This document shows, piece by piece, positions 14,376 through 33,144 of a stretch of 64,000 bases of DNA; position 1 is the first letter of the stretch, and each line of letters starts with the position of its first letter. The position numbers were made by a program, and so were the translations under genes. Location of the stretch: assembly GCA_963580245.1 (NCBI GenBank), contig CAUZJO010000001.1:67564-131563 (forward strand), written 5' to 3'. Under the pieces are notes generated by a model. That model had not been told where the DNA came from. It saw nothing but the letters and a program-made list of their open reading frames with translations, and made no database searches. The DNA comes from Candidatus Sumerlaeia bacterium (GTDB lineage Bacteria; Sumerlaeota; Sumerlaeia; MVZB01).

Positions 14376-16337
14376 ACCTACACGGTCCAGACCGACGTGG
14401 ACCCGGCCGACGCCCAGGCCTGGTGGGACACGCACCGGCCCCTCCTGCCCAACGTTCTCGTGCCAGACCTGGAGTATGACGCGCTCGAGAACGTGCTCGA
14501 AATGGACGTGGATGAGACCAGCGGTCCGCTGGCGGCCAAGTTTGGCGGCAAGGCGGCCAACCTGGCCAAGATGTTCTCGTTCCTCCCCGCCGAGTACCAG
14601 GTTCCGGGCTTCGCGATCCCGTTTCGTTACTATCACGAGTTCATGACAAGCAACCTGATCGCCGACGACCGCTTCGAGCCTCCGGTTTTGCGGACGTACG
14701 AGGACTATCTACGCTCGCTTTTGGAAGACCCCCGGTTCCAGAGCGACGGCCAGTATCGCGCCGAGCGACTCGACGATTTTCGCGACACGATGCGCGACGA
14801 CGGCGTGGTCGATCCGGTGCTGGTCCAGGCGTGGGTCACGCGCATCACCGAGGTGTTCGGTTCGCCGTCGGTCATGGTCCGCTTCCGCTCCTCGTCCAAC
14901 AATGAAGACTCGGTCATCTTCATCGGTGCCGGGCTCTATGACTCGACGTCGGTCTGCGTCGAGGACTCGCTCGACGGTGACAACGTCGGCCCCTCGCGCT
15001 GCGACCCCAACCAGCTCAGGGAACGGACCATTGAGCGGGGCCTCAAGAAGGTGTGGGCCAGCCTGTGGAACTTCCGGGCGTACGAGGAACGCAGCTACTT
15101 CCAGGTCCCCCAGCAGCGGGCGAAGATGGCGATCCTGGTTACCCCGGCATTCCCCGCCGAGGCGTCCAACGGCGTGGCCTTCACCGGCGACCCGATCGTC
15201 GGCCGATCCTCCGGCTACGTGATCAACGCCCAGACCGGCGACGAGAGCGTGGTGTATCCTGACGTCAACGTCCTGCCCGAAAAGGACATCCTGACCATCC
15301 GAGACGGCGAGGTAAGCGGGATCAACCGCGTGCGGCCATCCTCTCTGATGCCGCCGGGCGAGCAAGTCCTGAGCGACGAACAACTGCGCACGCTGGGCCG
15401 GGCGATGGCGATCGTCGACGAAGGCCTGATGATCGACCTCGAAGGCCACGATCGCGAAGACGTGGTCGTGGATATCGAATTCAAGTTCACCCGGGAAGGC
15501 GACCTGATTTTCAAACAGGCCCGCCCCTTCCTGCGTTCGACGCTTCCGCCGCCGCAAACCGATGATTTCTTCCAGATGGTCATTCCCGACGAGATTACGT
15601 TTTGCGAAGCGGGGATCGTCGGCACATTGCGGACCGCGTATGAACACCTGGCCCAGATCGATCTCCAACCGGGGATGATCTACCTGCCCAAGCACCAGGA
15701 AGAAATCCAAGCCGACGTGATCAAGGAGTTCCGCATCGGCCCCGACCAGACGATCGCCCAGCCCCAGGGGCAAGGGCGGTTCACGAGGACCGTTTTCAAG
15801 GGAGACGATAAGACGATCAGTTACGGGTACGAGTGTGAGCAGGCCTTCCTCGCGGGCGAGGAAATGATCACGATCGGGATTCATCAACGGGAATACCATG
15901 AGGGCGATCCCCCGTTCGTGATCGATGAGGACCTCTATACCGACCCGCCGCGCTCGCCGGAATTCGTCTTTGAGATTTTCGGCGAGACCGAAGTGGAGTA
16001 TTTCTTCATGGTACTTTCGGCGTGCGAATTGCCCACGCCTCTTTTTATGAATAACTATCAGTTTGCGGACGGCGGCTGGTTGAACACCTTCACGCGAGTG
16101 ATCGCGACAAACGTTTGCGGCGCGCGGGCCAATTTCGTGTTCGTCGAGGGTTGGCTGCCCGAACTATCGAACCAACGCTTTGTGCAAGATGATTTCTTTT
16201 GCCTCGCCACGGTTGGGGGGTGTCACTACGCGGGCCGAGTTTCCTTGTCGTTTTTGATTCACCCTTCGATGAGGCGCACGGCGTCAGCTTTGACTTCAGG
16301 ACCGTCGAGGTTCTCGATGAAAACCTCGAGCCGTTAA
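14376..16337 (+). CDS. PPDK_N (pyruvate-phosphate dikinase / PEP synthase nucleotide-binding, ATP-grasp-like) domain protein. It is in the +1 frame relative to the upstream segment, and its start is unresolved.
   Basis: Matches to the PEP synthase N-terminal half are FGGKAANLAKM, VRFRSSSNNED, WASLWNFRAYEER and DIEFKFTREGDLIFKQARP. The ORF-track start at 14208 overlaps the upstream frame. Confidence 0.6.
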   Translation, partial: TYTVQTDVDPADAQAWWDTHRPLLPNVLVPDLEYDALENVLEMDVDETSGPLAAKFGGKAANLAKMFSFLPAEYQVPGFAIPFRYYHEFMTSNLIADDRFEPPVLRTYEDYLRSLLEDPRFQSDGQYRAERLDDFRDTMRDDGVVDPVLVQAWVTRITEVFGSPSVMVRFRSSSNNEDSVIFIGAGLYDSTSVCVEDSLDGDNVGPSRCDPNQLRERTIERGLKKVWASLWNFRAYEERSYFQVPQQRAKMAILVTPAFPAEASNGVAFTGDPIVGRSSGYVINAQTGDESVVYPDVNVLPEKDILTIRDGEVSGINRVRPSSLMPPGEQVLSDEQLRTLGRAMAIVDEGLMIDLEGHDREDVVVDIEFKFTREGDLIFKQARPFLRSTLPPPQTDDFFQMVIPDEITFCEAGIVGTLRTAYEHLAQIDLQPGMIYLPKHQEEIQADVIKEFRIGPDQTIAQPQGQGRFTRTVFKGDDKTISYGYECEQAFLAGEEMITIGIHQREYHEGDPPFVIDEDLYTDPPRSPEFVFEIFGETEVEYFFMVLSACELPTPLFMNNYQFADGGWLNTFTRVIATNVCGARANFVFVEGWLPELSNQRFVQDDFFCLATVGGCHYAGRVSLSFLIHPSMRRTASALTSGPSRFSMKTSSR

Positions 16338-27837: not shown

Positions 27838-27934
27838 GAAACCGGTGTCCGGCAACTCCGTGACGGTGAGGACCGGGGACGAGATCCAATGGGCATGAGA
27901 GGGGAGCACGCTTCGCGAGGGCGATCGGGCCCAG

Positions 27935-28315
27935 CTACGCCATGGTTCTCAAGACGGAATTCACAACTTCGCGATCGAACGCTTGCGGGTCGAATTCACC
28001 CCCGATCCAATCCAATAACTCCTGATGCTCCTCGTGATTGGGATCGCCGATCACTTCGAGAAAATGTTCGTAGCCCCAGACGCCGCCGCAGTCTTCCGGG
28101 GGGCATGCGCGCTTGCCGGCCAGGCATGCGGGGTAGCGCATGTCCTCCTTGGGCGGGCCGACCTGCTCGATCACCAGCCGATGGAGCCAGCTGTCGCCGA
28201 AGTCGTACTGATAGGTGAACTTCGCGCCCTTTCCCCGTACGACGTCGCGGAGTGCCGATTTCGTTTCGTTCAACACCTCCACGCCGAAGTCCATATCAAA
28301 ACGCAGCCATCCCAT
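27935..28315 (-). pseudogene. N-terminally truncated plasmid pRiA4b ORF-3-like protein (PF07929 family, an IS/plasmid passenger gene).
   Basis: There is a strong match to the family's C-terminal half: YQYDFGDSWLHRLVIE…GKRACPPEDCGGVWGYEHFLEVIGDPNHEEHQELLDWIGGEFDPQAFD. The family's N-terminal ~60 aa are absent. The apparent N-terminus is encoded inside the palindrome at 28304-28345. Confidence 0.7.
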
Positions 28316-28345
28316 AAGAATTCTCGAATTCTTATGGGATGGCTG
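28304..28345. repeat. Perfect 20+2+20 bp palindrome (cagccatcccataagaattc-tc-gaattcttatgggatggctg), with a degenerate extra right-arm copy at ~28388-28410.
   Basis: It is self-complementary as read. Both strands therefore encode the same peptide, QPSHKNSRILMGWL, which is seen in two ORF-track entries. Confidence 0.85.
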
Positions 28346-28767
28346 TGAAAATAAAGCGCATTTCACAATGACAACCCGAATTCCGCAGGGCTGTGGGATG
28401 GCTCTGAAACGAGGTTGCGTTCATGGAGCCGGCCGGCCGATATTATCCGCTCTATCAGCGGGCGCGCTATCGGGAAAACAAGGTTCGATGGGTCCAGCGA
28501 GAACGGTTCGTGGCAGATGCTCCGCTTGACTGGTAGGGAATTCGGGCATGCAAGAAGCGCGCGAAATCAGACGCAAGAATGAGAACTGTTGGCAAGGGCG
28601 CCACGCAATGAAGCGTCATCGCTTATACCGGCCGCGGCGGTGATCATCTCGAAGCACCCGCGAAAAACGACAGCGCATCCACCCGCCGATACGTCGCGAA
28701 GGGGCGCTCATCGCGGCGACAGGCCGATCGGGCGTGGATCGATCGATCAGTCGCGCGCTCGGATCGG

Positions 28768-30726
28768 TCAATCCAAAGCCCTGACCATCAGCTCCGCGAT
28801 ACGTCGGCTAAACGCGCTGGGATCGGCCAGTTTGCCGTCTTCGGAAAGCACCGCCTGGCCGTGCAAGAGCTCGGCGTATTCGGCGAGTCGCGGGTCTTGG
28901 GGGTCTTTTTCAAACAATGATGACAGTTTCTCGACGATGGGATGGTTAGGGTTGAGTTCCAGGATGCGTTTGACTTCCGGCACGTCCTGGCCCATTGATT
29001 TCAGGATCTGTTCGAGCTGCGGCGTGAGGTCGGCCTGTTCACCGACGAGGCACGCCGGCGAGGTCGTCAGTCGGCTGGAGAGCCGGACCTCCTTGACGTG
29101 CTTCTCAAGCTTGCCCTTGATGGCCTCGAGCAGCGATTGATACGTCTGCTCCTGCTCCTTGCGTTCCTCCTCGGCTTTTTTCTTCTCTTCCTCGTCGCCC
29201 AGTTCGATCTCGCCCTTGCCGACCGACTTGAACGGCTTATCCTTGTGTTCGAAGACCCCGCCGGTCCAGATCTCGTCGATCGGGTCGCTCAGCAGCAGGA
29301 CCTCGTAGCCCTTGTCGCGAAACGCCTCGAGGTGAGGTGAGTTCTCGATCGCCCCGCGCGACTGACCCGTCATGTAATAGACCGCGTCCTGCCCGTCCTT
29401 CATCCGGCCCACGTAATCCTGCAACGTGCTCAGCCCCCCGTCGACCTGCGTGGACTCGAACAGGCACAGATCGAGCAGCGCCTCGCGGTTGCGTTCATCA
29501 TGAATGATGCCTTCCTTGATCACGCGGCCGAACTGGCGCCAGAATTTCTCGAACGACTCGGCCTCGTCCGCCTGCATCCTGCGCAGCGTATCGAGGACCT
29601 TGCGCACCAGGCTGTTGCGGATCAGACGGATCTGGCGGTTCTGTTGCAGGATCTCGCGCGAGATGTTGAGCGAGAGGTCTTCGGAATCGACGACGCCGCG
29701 GATGAACCGGAAGTACTCGGGGATCAGCTCCTTGCAATCGTGCATGATGAAGACGCGCTTGATATAGAGTTGTATCCCGTGGTCGCCGTCGGGCATCAGG
29801 ATATTGATCGGCGCCTGGGACGGGATATAGAGCAGCGCGCGGAACTCGTGGGTCCCCTCGGCCTTTATGCTGAACCACTTGAGCGGGTCGGTCCAGTCGT
29901 GGCTGATGTGTTTGTAGAATTCCTTGAATTCCTCTTCCTTGACCTCGCTCTCGGGCCGGGTCCAGATCGCCTTCATCGAGTTGAGTGTTTGGTCCTCGAC
30001 GACGGTCCGCTCCTGGGCGCCTTCCTTGGGTTTACCTTCCTCGTCGCGTTCAATCTCGCTACGCTCAACCTGCATGCGGATGGGATACGAGACGAAGTCG
30101 GAATACTTTTTGACGGTTTGCCGAATGACCCATTCCTGCGTGAAGTCCTCGACCCCCTCTTCCTCGCTGACCGGTTTGAGGTGAAGCGTGACGGTGACGC
30201 CCTGGGCGGACCGTTCGGCTTCCTCCATCGTGTAGCGGCCGTCACCGTGCGATTCCCACTTCCAGGCCTGCTCTTCGCCGGCGCGGCGGGTGACGAGCGT
30301 CACGCGGTCGGCCACCATGAAGCTGGAATAGAAGCCGACGCCAAATTGTCCGATGAGTTCGGTCGGCACGTCGCTCTTCTTGGTTTGCTTGACCAGCTCG
30401 AGGAAATCGGCGGTCCCCGACTTGGCGATCGTTCCGATAAAACGGATGATCTCGTCGTGATTCATCCCGATCCCGTTGTCGCTGACCGAGAGCGTGCGCT
30501 TGTCCCCGTCCACTTCGATGTGGATATGGGCGTCTTCGGTCAGGTTGCCCAGCTTCTCACTGGTCAGGGCCTCGAAGCGCAGTTTGTCGAGGGCGTCGGA
30601 GGCGTTCGAGATCAGCTCGCGCAGGAATATCTCCTTGTGCGAGTATACTGAATGAATCATCAGATCCAAAAGCTGCTTGGCCTCGGTCTGGAATTCATGG
30701 GTTTCGATCGTGGCGGTCATCGTCAA
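28768..30726 (-). CDS. htpG: Molecular chaperone HtpG (Hsp90).
   Basis: The N-terminal ATPase motifs are FLRELISNASDALDKLRF and GQFGVGFYSSFMVADRV. The length is 652 aa, with GGAGGAG as Shine-Dalgarno. Confidence 0.92.
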   Translation of the reverse strand: MTMTATIETHEFQTEAKQLLDLMIHSVYSHKEIFLRELISNASDALDKLRFEALTSEKLGNLTEDAHIHIEVDGDKRTLSVSDNGIGMNHDEIIRFIGTIAKSGTADFLELVKQTKKSDVPTELIGQFGVGFYSSFMVADRVTLVTRRAGEEQAWKWESHGDGRYTMEEAERSAQGVTVTLHLKPVSEEEGVEDFTQEWVIRQTVKKYSDFVSYPIRMQVERSEIERDEEGKPKEGAQERTVVEDQTLNSMKAIWTRPESEVKEEEFKEFYKHISHDWTDPLKWFSIKAEGTHEFRALLYIPSQAPINILMPDGDHGIQLYIKRVFIMHDCKELIPEYFRFIRGVVDSEDLSLNISREILQQNRQIRLIRNSLVRKVLDTLRRMQADEAESFEKFWRQFGRVIKEGIIHDERNREALLDLCLFESTQVDGGLSTLQDYVGRMKDGQDAVYYMTGQSRGAIENSPHLEAFRDKGYEVLLLSDPIDEIWTGGVFEHKDKPFKSVGKGEIELGDEEEKKKAEEERKEQEQTYQSLLEAIKGKLEKHVKEVRLSSRLTTSPACLVGEQADLTPQLEQILKSMGQDVPEVKRILELNPNHPIVEKLSSLFEKDPQDPRLAEYAELLHGQAVLSEDGKLADPSAFSRRIAELMVRALD

Positions 30727-30889
30727 GGGTCTCCTCCAATGGCGGTCGTCGCATCAATTACTGGCGTTCTCTGGCGGGTGGCGGAGCAATCTTATCGTTT
30801 GACCGCCACCTACAGTAACAGAACTATTACCACGACCAGCGTTGGGAATCACCTGGTTTTTGTAGATTCTTTCGTATCAATAGGACGCG

Positions 30890-31035
30890 GATGACGCGGA
30901 TTTTACGGATTCACACCGATCAGAGAATAATTAAAACTTGTTTATATATTGCCTTAATCCGTGAAAATCTGTCAAATCCGTATCATCTGTGTTCCATAAT
31001 TCGCGAGAATCCGTTGAATCCGCGTCATCCGCGTT
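30890..31035. promoter_or_regulatory. AT-rich (40% GC) module in the htpG promoter region. It is bounded by 15-bp inverted repeats and carries multiple CGGATT/AATCCG half-sites. It is either a candidate heat-shock operator or a MITE-like insertion.
   Basis: ggatgacgcggattc at 30889-30903 and gaatccgcgtcatcc at 31021-31035 are perfect reverse complements. Inside, CGGATT occurs twice on the left and AATCCG four times on the right. GC is 40%, against ~63% for the window. Confidence 0.5.
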
Positions 31036-31040
31036 CCATA

Positions 31041-31310
31041 TCAAAAGCTCGACGAGATCGTTCTTTCATATTCGGGAAAGTATCTGTTGATCAGCGGCAG
31101 GTCGAAACGCGACAGAATCATCGTATTGCTCTCACGTTCGAGCAGGAACTCGAACGACCGCTTGATCAGTTCCGCCTCCGATGCCTTGCCACCCGTCAGC
31201 TTTTGATAATAGGCCGGATCAAGCGTCACCGTGTGCGTCGTGGTCGACTTGTCTTCAACGGTCACGTGATATGAATCCGCGCCTTTCTCTTCAACGAGTA
31301 TGTTCGCCAT
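31041..31310 (-). CDS. Small hypothetical protein of 89 aa, divergent from the carbohydrate cluster and co-directional with htpG.
   Basis: The ATG has a GGGAGG Shine-Dalgarno 10 nt upstream. The composition is coding-like (MANILVEEKGADSYHVTVEDKSTTTHTVTLDPAYYQKL…). Confidence 0.5.
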   Translation of the reverse strand: MANILVEEKGADSYHVTVEDKSTTTHTVTLDPAYYQKLTGGKASEAELIKRSFEFLLERESNTMILSRFDLPLINRYFPEYERTISSSF

Positions 31311-31527: not shown

Positions 31528-33144
31528 TTGGCTCGGAGCGGACATATGGGATATTTCAGTTTACGCCGGCAATCCCTCAGCGGGAATGTTGTGCCGCTTC
31601 TTCTGTTTCTATGTGGCGGATTGCTCTCTGGTTTATGCGCTGGTGAGCCGCCCCGTCAATCCAGATATCTCCTGCTCGATTCACGGATCGTTGAGAAGAC
31701 CGAAAACGTCAAACTCACCGTCGGCACCGTCGGCAAGCACCCCGCCAATCCCCTGTTCGGTGAAGATAACCCATGGGAGCCTCGGTTGGACAACTTGTAT
31801 GGGACGATCATGTACGACGAAGAGGACGGCCTGTATAAACTTTGGTATAACCCCTTTGTGCTCGACGGCGCGATGACCCGCACGCCCCCCGATCGACGCC
31901 TGCCCGAAACGGATCCTCCCGGCGATCCCAGCGACCCCGAGAGCCTGACCACCTATATGAAGATGCATTCTCCGGCGAGGGCTCAGCTAGGCAATGATTC
32001 CGAGGAAACCATCGCAAGTTGGTACGGCATGCAACGCGTGAGCGGCGTTTGTTACGCGACTTCCACGGACGGAATCCATTGGGAGAAACCCCTGATGGAC
32101 CTTGTCACGTTTCAGGGCCGCAAGAGCAACATCGTTTTCTGGGGGGCGCACGGACCGGGCGTGTTATACGATCCGCTCGAGCGCGACCCGGCCCGGCGTT
32201 ACAAGATGTTTTTCAGCTATCATTTTCGCGAGCCGGTGCTCCCCGGCAGCCCAAAACTGGACTCCTATCCGTTCATGTCGGTTGCGTTCTCGCCCGATGG
32301 CTTGCGTTGGGGAGAGCCGATCGCGGTTCCGGAACTCCGCGTCGCGGGCGACACCCACAGCAATACCTTCTGGGCGCCTGAATTGAACAAATACGTGGGG
32401 ATTACGCGTCATTGGGAAGACGGCCGGGTCCATCGCGAAAGCCAACGGCTCGTCTACCGCACCGAGACCGCGGACTTCATAAATTGGAGCGAAGCCGAGG
32501 AAGTCCTGCGCGGCACGAAATCCGATCAGGTCTACGCGATGCCCGTTTTCCGACACGCCGGCGTCTATCTTGGGTTTGCCACGATCCTGCGAGTGCGCGA
32601 AGACCGTTCGCACTGTGAATTGGCCTGGAGCCCCGATACGATCCATTGGGAGCGCATCGATCCGGGGACGCCGCTGATTCCGAACGGGGGCGAGGTCGGA
32701 GACTACGATTGGGGATGCGTCTTCGCGTGCGATAACCCCGTGTTCCTCGACGACGAAATACGTCTTTTCTATGAAGGTTCGAATGGGATCCACGGGGGAT
32801 GGCGTAATTCGTTTCTCTGCCTGGCGAGCCTGCGGCCCGATGGGTTCGCGGGCTACGAGCCGTCATCGGATGAGACGAACGGGAACGTGTGGACGCAGCC
32901 CGTTATCTGTCAAGGGGCGAACCTGCGCGTCTCCGCGGACGCGGCCGGCGGGGCCCTCAGGGTCGGCATCGTCGGTGACGCGGACCGGTCAATCGAACGT
33001 TGCAAGCCGATCCAGGGCGATGTGAGCGACACCGTCGTTCAATGGAGCGATGCCGGTAACCTTGCGCCATACCACGGCGGGCCGATTCAACTCCAGTTCG
33101 AGTTGGACGGCGCCAAGCTCTATTCTTTCAGCTTTGCGGATTGA
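31528..33144 (+). CDS. Secreted glycoside-hydrolase-like five-bladed beta-propeller protein (GH43/GH32/GH130 superfamily; exact family not resolved).
   Basis: A signal peptide is present. There are repeated propeller-blade signatures with conserved Asp/Trp (…STDGIHWEKP…, …FSPDGLRWGEP…, …WSPDTIHWERI…, …FYEGSNGIHGGW…). Confidence 0.4.
   Translation: MARSGHMGYFSLRRQSLSGNVVPLLLFLCGGLLSGLCAGEPPRQSRYLLLDSRIVEKTENVKLTVGTVGKHPANPLFGEDNPWEPRLDNLYGTIMYDEEDGLYKLWYNPFVLDGAMTRTPPDRRLPETDPPGDPSDPESLTTYMKMHSPARAQLGNDSEETIASWYGMQRVSGVCYATSTDGIHWEKPLMDLVTFQGRKSNIVFWGAHGPGVLYDPLERDPARRYKMFFSYHFREPVLPGSPKLDSYPFMSVAFSPDGLRWGEPIAVPELRVAGDTHSNTFWAPELNKYVGITRHWEDGRVHRESQRLVYRTETADFINWSEAEEVLRGTKSDQVYAMPVFRHAGVYLGFATILRVREDRSHCELAWSPDTIHWERIDPGTPLIPNGGEVGDYDWGCVFACDNPVFLDDEIRLFYEGSNGIHGGWRNSFLCLASLRPDGFAGYEPSSDETNGNVWTQPVICQGANLRVSADAAGGALRVGIVGDADRSIERCKPIQGDVSDTVVQWSDAGNLAPYHGGPIQLQFELDGAKLYSFSFAD

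Follow-up and report, generated by a model that had tools for sequence, protein, structure and literature searches.

A 64-kb stretch of a Candidatus Sumerlaeia bacterium genome (contig CAUZJO010000001.1; this whole stretch of 64,000 nucleotides is called the window below) carries, upstream of the HSP90-family gene htpG, an AT-rich module of inverted repeats that a preliminary description had read either as a heat-shock operator or as a transposable element. Here we show that this module belongs to a repeat family found across phyla, that the same arms bracket a gene of ~130 aa for a GxxExxY protein (PF13366/TIGR04256, PD-(D/E)XK) in most of the independent loci sampled, that the heptamer in the arms differs between GxxExxY subfamilies, and that the resulting cassettes are insertions in operon spacers. 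The explanation we favour, and consider reasonably probable, is that the module is a gene-less, non-autonomous member of a widespread palindromic-repeat family whose full-length forms bracket a GxxExxY gene, and that it was mobilised in trans and is a local passenger at htpG.

Anatomy of the element

A repeat search of the window placed an imperfect palindrome of 160 bp at 30880-31039, with 48-nt arms that are 77% complementary. Its GC content is 0.32-0.37 against 0.617 window-wide, in line with the drop of more than 20 points reported earlier for an AT-rich module. Also as reported, six exact copies of AATCCG/CGGATT lie in mirrored orientation within 30897-31022, two on the minus strand followed by four on the plus strand, against an expectation of about 0.1 for this interval, given 53 on both strands in the whole 64 kb. 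The repeating unit is not the hexamer but a 9-nt unit with the core CRCGGAT, present about four times on the left and eight times on the right, where a 42-nt module is duplicated in tandem with 74% identity between modules. The ends had been described as perfect inverted repeats of 15 bp. The two 15-mers quoted differ at one base (the left one is ggatgacgcggattT), and the true perfect repeat is a 17-nt core shifted outward, CGCGGATGACGCGGATT, at 30886-30902 (plus) and 31017-31033 (minus), with no further exact copies in the window. The parts of the element are as follows.

30880..31039, no strand: whole palindromic element (foot, left arm, AT-rich centre, two right-arm modules, foot), delimited from repeats, folds and 78 elements of the same architecture elsewhere
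30880..30883, plus: left foot ATAG; the outer end in the family is [A/T]T[A/G]G, 1-2 nt, first heptamer, and the same foot occurs at the GxxExxY genes of loci L169 and L173
30884..30920, plus: left arm of four 9-10-nt units, read from the sequence (9-nt spacing is dominant family-wide), with cores CGCGGAT 30886-92, CGCGGAT 30895-901, TACGGAT 30904-10 and CACCGAT 30914-20
30921..30956, no strand: AT-rich, lineage-specific centre of 36 bp, the hairpin loop; in full-length relatives the slot of the GxxExxY open reading frame (ORF)
30957..30997, plus: right-arm module 1 (ATCCGTG, ATCTGTC, ATCCGTA, ATCTGTG, internal foot TTCCAT), first copy of the 42-nt tandem repeat
30999..31039, plus: right-arm module 2 (ATTCGCG, ATCCGTT, ATCCGCG, ATCCGCG, terminal foot TTCCAT, reverse complement ATGGAA)

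The centre contains no ORF, and we class the window copy as a gene-less form. When folded as RNA, the transcribed (minus) strand of the element reaches -67.7 kcal/mol, compared with -38.2 +/- 3.5 for shuffled sequences (z -8.45); the DNA fold reaches -34.0 kcal/mol (z -5.65 against shuffles). All matches in an Rfam 15 scan of the region (E up to 10) were below the gathering threshold, the best, to generic long microRNA-precursor hairpins, scoring 37.9 bits against a threshold of 130.

A repeat family dispersed across phyla

A scan of one genome per species with a 19-mer, GACGCGGATGACGCGGATT, found at least 119 stretches, where we estimate that ~4 would occur by chance. The genome and metagenome scans used exact words, so every such count is a minimum and leans toward the variant used as query. 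The sources include Saprospiraceae, Chitinophagales, Bacteroidaceae, Flavobacterium, Calditrichia, Chloroflexota, Poribacteria, Planctomycetota, Xenococcaceae cyanobacteria, Acidobacteriota, Chlorobiota, an anammox bacterium, Syntrophomonas and a Methanoperedens metagenome-assembled genome (MAG), often with several copies per genome; MAG contigs such as the Methanoperedens and 'Rhizobiaceae' matches may be mis-binned. The family of the window element spans more than a dozen phyla.

The layout at these loci is recurrent: a cluster of CRCGGAT units is followed, 40-250 bp further on, by a cluster of the inverse unit. The recovered loci contained 78 complete elements of 43-624 bp, whose usual outer end is [A/T]T[A/G]G, 1-2 nt and then the first heptamer; across the family, 493 of ~900 distances between neighbouring units were 9 nt. 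The window element shares the structural traits by which we propose to define the family, namely two inverted arms, at least two units at 9-10-nt spacing, the core CRCGGAT and feet of the form [A/T]T[A/G]G. A CACGGAT variant of the same architecture was found at 23 metagenome loci with a 20-mer from the htpG-proximal arm, and a consensus query found a GC-rich version of the arrays on a megaplasmid of Gemmatirosa (Gemmatimonadota). A BLAST search of plasmids with the window element itself gave no match, viral contigs contained no copy of the 19-mer, and the arm sequences appeared in no paper in the open-access literature or bioRxiv.

The neighbours of the arrays are unrelated housekeeping genes. 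By gene calls that are crude for all context statistics given here, the elements lie between convergent genes in 20 cases, co-directional genes in 33 and divergent genes in 15, many of them 0-15 nt from a stop codon. One Bacteroidaceae MAG carries four copies that are at least 97% identical at unrelated loci, and the family has therefore spread recently within a genome. All-against-all clustering of the ORFs around the repeats gave no common neighbour family at E below 1e-8 except Sus-like genes, and the ORFs between widely spaced arms or beside solo arms were housekeeping genes, with no transposase among them.

The arms vary in size and in context. At four Saprospiraceae/Chitinophagales loci (L013, L021, L028, L107) they have grown into long tandem arrays of up to 34 units over ~400 bp, with a 35-nt higher-order module, GGAACGCGGATGACGCGGATGACGCGGATTTTTTT, UUCG-type hairpins, GCTGCCTTCGGCAGC, in the centre, and very unequal copy numbers on the left and right. 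In Bacteroidaceae MAGs (L006, L020, L025, L041, L043, L056) the CGCGGAT arms are subterminal and the unit reaches outward to an extra inverted repeat, GAGGGTGTGTCATAATT ... CATTTTGACACATCCCC; a longer variant has a nested insert of ~54 bp in its centre. Some other likenesses were considered and dropped. The GTAG/CGTC families of repetitive extragenic palindromic (REP) sequences have units that are 8-9-bp stems, unlike these arrays, and the resemblance of the heptamer to CsrA sites, DnaA boxes and the tRNA T-loop consists of partial matches in the wrong taxonomic range.

A nuclease-type gene between the arms

Among the 150 genes nearest the arrays, a Pfam scan identified PF13366 (PDDEXK_3) three times, and this was the sole recurring nuclease-type family. 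All three genes abut an array or lie at most 26 nt from one, and NCBIfam names all three 'GxxExxY protein' (TIGR04256, E ~1e-37). At metagenome locus L147, the upstream stop codon is followed after 3 nt by four CACGGAT-type units (one degenerate) and then by the GxxExxY ORF, whose 3' end runs into the inverse units; 12 nt past these, the next gene begins with its start codon.

Further GxxExxY genes were reached through a protein profile search, and the loci encoding them were then inspected. Arms were present on both sides of the gene in a Bacteroidota MAG (L155), Flavobacterium tiangeerense (L156), Cloacimonetes (L157-160), Chloroflexota (L169), Acidobacteriota (L173) and Nomurabacteria (L176). 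The arms at L169 and L173 have exactly the foot and heptamers of the window element (ATAGGACGCAGAT... and ATAGAACGCGGAT...). More distant, plasmid-borne GxxExxY genes (33-59% identity) had flanks built in the same way from other heptamers, namely CACAGAGGA/CTCTGTG in Bacteroides finegoldii, CACAGAG in Bernardetia and CGCGAAG/CTTCGCG in Sphingomonas parapaucimobilis; a Treponema gene has a single 11-bp inverted repeat. When the 5' and 3' flanks were scored for inverted repeats, 10 of 16 GxxExxY genes reached 18 or more, compared with a mean of 9.4 (standard deviation 2.0, maximum 19) for 50 control genes of the window. The association of these arms with GxxExxY genes is described in no paper among the open-access literature and bioRxiv.

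The left arms in Sphingomonas (L167) and B. finegoldii (L166) have a further property: their heptamer arrays hold Shine-Dalgarno-like GAGGA/GGAGG and end at the GxxExxY start codon or within ~30 nt upstream of it. The arm may double as a ribosome-binding site there.

Between the two arms of a cassette, heptamer cores are 85% conserved and spacers 71%; the mismatches are mostly transversions, and sense-strand G.U pairs are not in excess (13 vs 18). It is therefore the motif that is kept rather than the pairing, which favours protein-binding sites over RNA pairing. The same data bear on an explanation at the level of RNA, in which the arrays would exist for RNA structure: the arms would pair in the operon transcript and loop out the ORF (or nothing, in gene-less copies), the stem-loop would be processed (for example by RNase III, as in 23S rRNA intervening sequences) or act as a terminator or stabiliser, and the family would have spread by another route. 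The very stable RNA hairpin of the window element, the UUCG-type hairpins of the Saprospiraceae copies, the co-directionality of 12 of 13 cassettes with their host operons (below) and a weak fold similarity between the GxxExxY model and tRNA-splicing endonucleases are all compatible with it. However, neither the pattern of mismatches nor the better conservation of the cores is what such pairing would leave behind, and pairing alone does not require a heptamer that is identical across phyla. We consider this explanation unlikely.

GxxExxY cassettes occupy operon spacers

Of 13 independent cassettes, 12 run in the same direction as both neighbours and occupy a tight gap between them, usually beginning a few nt past the upstream stop codon. 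The junctions include fabD|fabG, radA|next gene, tyrS|next gene, cas6|cas4 and, in four lineages, FnlA-like epimerase|next epimerase. At fabD|fabG, S. parapaucimobilis has the cassette and S. paeninsulae a plain spacer of 33 nt; in the alignment, three more alphaproteobacterial replicons have a gap of the same size at this junction. The window element is placed in the same way, in a tight gap between co-directional genes and a few nt past the upstream stop codon.

Two of these junctions deserve separate mention. One GxxExxY subfamily (56-85% identity) occurs at a single junction, between an FnlA-like (Polysacc_synt_2) epimerase gene and the next epimerase gene, in four lineages: an unassigned metagenome contig (L147), Flavobacterium (L156), Cloacimonetes (L157-160) and Nomurabacteria (L176). 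Either the junction is a preferred target, or the whole sugar operon was transferred with its cassette. In an Acidobacteriota contig (L173, JANWZE010000069.1), the cassette lies in a CRISPR-cas operon between cas6 and cas4, with complete gene-less palindromes on both sides. A preprint on reverse transcriptases places a GxxExxY gene beside a CRISPR-associated reverse transcriptase.

The protein family is large, with 26,810 clusters at 50% identity (E up to 1e-3), or 10,267 at E up to 1e-10. Residues invariant in 43 diverse members include G..E..Y, D, E.K and Q..YL, and comprise the predicted catalytic D...E.K. In an AlphaFold2 model (predicted local distance difference test score, pLDDT, 94; predicted template modelling score, pTM, 0.87), the nearest solved folds were Cas4 SSO0001, the lambda and LHK exonucleases and MGME1; tRNA-splicing endonucleases and the resolvase Hjc came far down the list. 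The GxxExxY protein is a predicted minimal Cas4/RecB-like PD-(D/E)XK nuclease. A sequence search of the PDB found no solved member of the family, PADLOC and PHROGs gave marginal Cas4-like matches only, and a phage collection held no GxxExxY homologue. PDDEXK_3 has been listed as 'unknown; multiple transfers, mixed clades' (PMC3424549), and mentions of GxxExxY or PDDEXK_3 in open-access papers and bioRxiv were otherwise in passing. Several proteins of 250-277 aa (P0361-P0365 and others) contain two full GxxExxY domains in tandem and look like adjacent cassettes fused by read-through.

The htpG locus and its history

Two genes border the element and are given for context only.

28768..30726, minus: htpG (HSP90 family; Pfam HSP90, E 5e-141), called start ATG at 30720
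31041..31310, minus: conserved hypothetical ORF of 89 aa, with 3148 homologues and no Pfam family

The Pfam match upholds the earlier naming of htpG. The 89-aa ORF had been called divergent; it is in fact on the same strand as htpG, and its stop codon (31041-31043) lies 1 nt from the element, whose other end is 159 nt from the htpG ATG. A scan for promoter and terminator consensus sequences found no sigma-70-like promoter on the htpG strand, so that the earlier label 'htpG promoter region' is only putative. Pfam has no match for three further ORFs near htpG, at 31528-33144 (plus) and within 27889-28529 (plus): one of 538 aa, oriented divergently from the small ORF and conserved in the relative described next as 532 aa, and two of ~105 aa downstream of htpG.

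The best named relatives of this HtpG are from Sumerlaeota/BRC1, at 64-68% identity. In a closer relative from a metagenome, HtpG is 96% identical and the DNA ~91% identical, and the htpG spacer contains two tandem, rearranged elements at the same site, each with a 24-nt hairpin nested inside it; between the two loci, the arm nearest htpG and the 159-nt spacer have been conserved. Because a relative with ~91% DNA identity already has elements at this site, the element is older than the split of the two lineages and not a recent insertion. It is also undergoing duplication and rearrangement in place, as in clusters of REP sequences and bacterial interspersed mosaic elements (BIMEs), and as would be unexpected for an operator.

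That latter possibility was one of the two readings offered in the preliminary description: the convergent half-site arrays would bind a dimeric or multimeric repressor of htpG. Cooperative DNA binders typically use arrays of short repeats, and the element lies upstream of htpG, in the same place in the relative with the 96%-identical HtpG. However, the same 19-mer and the same convergent arrays flank unrelated genes in many phyla, and the most frequent families in the scan of the 150 nearest genes include no heat-shock family. The window has a single array cluster, this cluster ends 159 nt short of the ATG with a conserved spacer in between, and its copy number and internal structure differ greatly between the two relatives. 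The description was right that the element is neither of two known heat-shock sites. The controlling inverted repeat of chaperone expression (CIRCE; TTAGCACTC-N9-GAGTGCTAA) has 0 matches in the window, the HspR-associated inverted repeat (HAIR; CTTGAGT-N7-ACTCAAG) has a single match there, at 14469 with 3 mismatches, which is chance level, and neither is found near htpG. A heat-shock operator is effectively excluded.

The relative differs from the window in two further places. Its 89-aa ORF is broken, near the equivalent of window position 31112, by an insertion with inverted-repeat ends, TATAGRCGCGCATAARTAAMACGACAAT... (L124 4190-4227 and L129 1-60); both contigs end inside this probable insertion sequence, which opens with bases, TAGACGCG, similar to the foot and first unit of the palindromic family. 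This insertion (ends TATAGRCGCGCATAA...) was considered as an autonomous partner of the family and set aside, being absent from the window and from JGI metagenomes. In addition, between the 532-aa gene and the 89-aa ORF (L124 3640-3770, near window 31542), the relative has ~134 bp for which the window is the empty site: two direct copies of one small hairpin, GTCGTCCCTACGGGAC / ATCGTCCCTGACGGGAC, surround a third, CCCGCCACTTGCGTGGCGGG. The repeat is REP-like and distinct from the palindromic family.

Proposed mobilisation of the family

The preliminary description's other reading, a miniature inverted-repeat transposable element (MITE) inserted in the htpG leader, holds in part. The window element has terminal inverted repeats, is small and lacks an ORF, and it does belong to a dispersed, non-coding inverted-repeat family; what we did not find in the loci examined is a consistent target duplication or a partner of the DDE or HUH type. 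In its classical form, this reading would make the element a deletion derivative of an insertion sequence with a DDE transposase (for example IS630-like, with TA duplication) and the GxxExxY gene a passenger or a preferred neighbour. Its small size, multiple copies and terminal repeats would fit, as would the many ends of the form TA|G...C|TA, compatible with a TA duplication. The TA, however, lies within the palindromic foot in some lineages, and hence is not diagnostic, and is missing from the flanks in other subfamilies (GTAC..., GCC...). The loci examined contain no transposase ORF, and partners with the same arms encode the GxxExxY nuclease, not a known transposase. A passenger gene would also leave unexplained that the heptamer type changes together with the GxxExxY subfamily. 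We regard a classical MITE as very unlikely. The general likeness to bacterial MITEs (Correia/NEMIS, RUP, ERIC, Nezha) is nevertheless clear, as these too are small, non-coding, multi-copy and gene-adjacent, with terminal inverted repeats and strong RNA hairpins; arms that are arrays of 2 to more than 30 9-mers set the present family apart from them.

A close architectural parallel is with REP doublets forming hairpins (REPINs), BIMEs and REPtrons. In both cases, short non-coding intergenic palindromes with a double foot often stand just past stop codons and form clusters of variable copy number at one site, and a nuclease-type gene is flanked by inverted repeats. REP elements near stop codons are known from work on E. 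coli. It could be proposed that the window element is of this type, mobilised by a single-copy HUH tyrosine transposase (REP-associated tyrosine transposase, RAYT) elsewhere in the genome: GT[AG]G, the foot of REP sequences, is close to [A/T]T[A/G]G, the elements cluster in numbers that vary at one site, a stop codon stands only 0-15 nt from many copies, and the taxonomic range resembles that of RAYT subclass 2.4, given as 'Cyanobacteria, Bacteroidetes and various phyla' (PMC6006769). REP sequences are, however, defined by a GT[AG]G foot beside an individually palindromic REP of 20-40 nt (PMC6006769), whereas the foot here is AT[AG]G or TTAG, differing in its first base, and the arms are tandem arrays of non-palindromic 9-nt units, not REP hairpins. 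A pattern search found an HUH...Y ORF neither in any recovered locus nor in the window. The gene that actually lies between the arms encodes a GxxExxY protein of PD-(D/E)XK type rather than an HUH-Y1 enzyme, and the core heptamer is common to several phyla. We regard a REPIN of the known kind as very unlikely.

Other known systems are similar in some respects. The 23S rRNA intervening sequences that carry an ORF (the S23p type of Leptospira and Coxiella) consist of a small ORF in inverted repeats with a potential long stem, and the host gene remains functional. The cassettes likewise have inverted repeats around a small ORF, a possible long stem in the transcript and a functional host operon, but they differ from these sequences in ORF family, in repeats and in host context, which is operon spacers here and rRNA there. 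Free-standing homing endonuclease genes and integron cassettes share with them a single small, co-oriented gene between host genes, host transcription and presence/absence polymorphism; homing endonuclease genes, however, have no terminal inverted arrays and no miniature derivatives, and integron cassettes rely on an integrase and a single attC site. Ribbon-helix-helix proteins bind short tandem repeats cooperatively (omega heptads, parC iterons, metboxes). Those arrays also consist of tandem 7-11-bp units, direct and inverted, around an AT-rich core, but they are confined to individual regulatory or centromere loci, whereas the present family is dispersed and has none of these proteins linked to it.

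Returning to mobilisation by the GxxExxY nuclease, we envisage that the enzyme, supplied in trans from another locus in the case of the window copy, would recognise the heptamer arrays and cut at the feet, and that cutting there would allow cassettes and miniature derivatives to spread. Either loss of the ORF or mobilisation in trans may have given rise to the window copy. At its present locus it would be a passenger rather than a heat-responsive operator. Co-transcribed with the small ORF, it would form a very stable hairpin and serve, ahead of htpG, as a partial terminator or 3' stabiliser; by analogy with the E. coli REP elements near stop codons, the ORF upstream could have its expression lowered or stabilised.

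Several observations weigh against this proposal. In six of 16 GxxExxY genes, one arm or both could not be recognised: only the left arm is present at L116/L174, L096 and L162 are followed directly by a complete palindrome without a gene, the arrays on the two sides of L161 and L164 have the same orientation, and the 11-bp inverted repeat of L163 (Treponema) scores only 13. The gene was present in only 3 of ~150 loci recovered via repeat searches, where gene-less copies are far commoner than gene-carrying ones, and tblastn found no GxxExxY gene in the window. The flanks of the 78 and 23 elements contain no consistent direct repeat that would mark a target-site duplication. An exact empty site at high identity was obtained for none of the elements; at htpG in particular there was no empty site, the sole close relative found also having the element. 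To our knowledge, no PD-(D/E)XK protein this small performs both cleavage and strand transfer. Finally, the arrays might have another purpose, in the expression of the GxxExxY gene or the processing of its RNA.

Implications

At the level of the locus, a tempting but wrong regulatory model for htpG is removed, and the case serves as a warning that AT-rich arrays between genes may look like operators and yet be selfish repeats. On a wider view, the results connect a large family of 'GxxExxY proteins' that had no assigned role with a dispersed repeat family not found in Rfam or in searchable papers. We tentatively propose, as a possibility that falls somewhat short of an even chance, that GxxExxY proteins are the nucleases of unrecognised minimal selfish elements, each a single ~130-aa PD-(D/E)XK gene set in inverted, subfamily-specific 9-nt arrays, which invade operon spacers across phyla and spawn gene-less palindromes in large numbers, the one at htpG among them. 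The claim that the nuclease mobilises the arrays is directly testable with one small protein and a 40-bp DNA. If it is true, these elements would represent a new enzymatic class of prokaryotic mobile element and a third route to REP- and MITE-like repeats besides the DDE and HUH enzymes, and would account for the GxxExxY genes wedged in conserved operons such as fabD-fabG, cas6-cas4 and the fnl-type epimerase loci.

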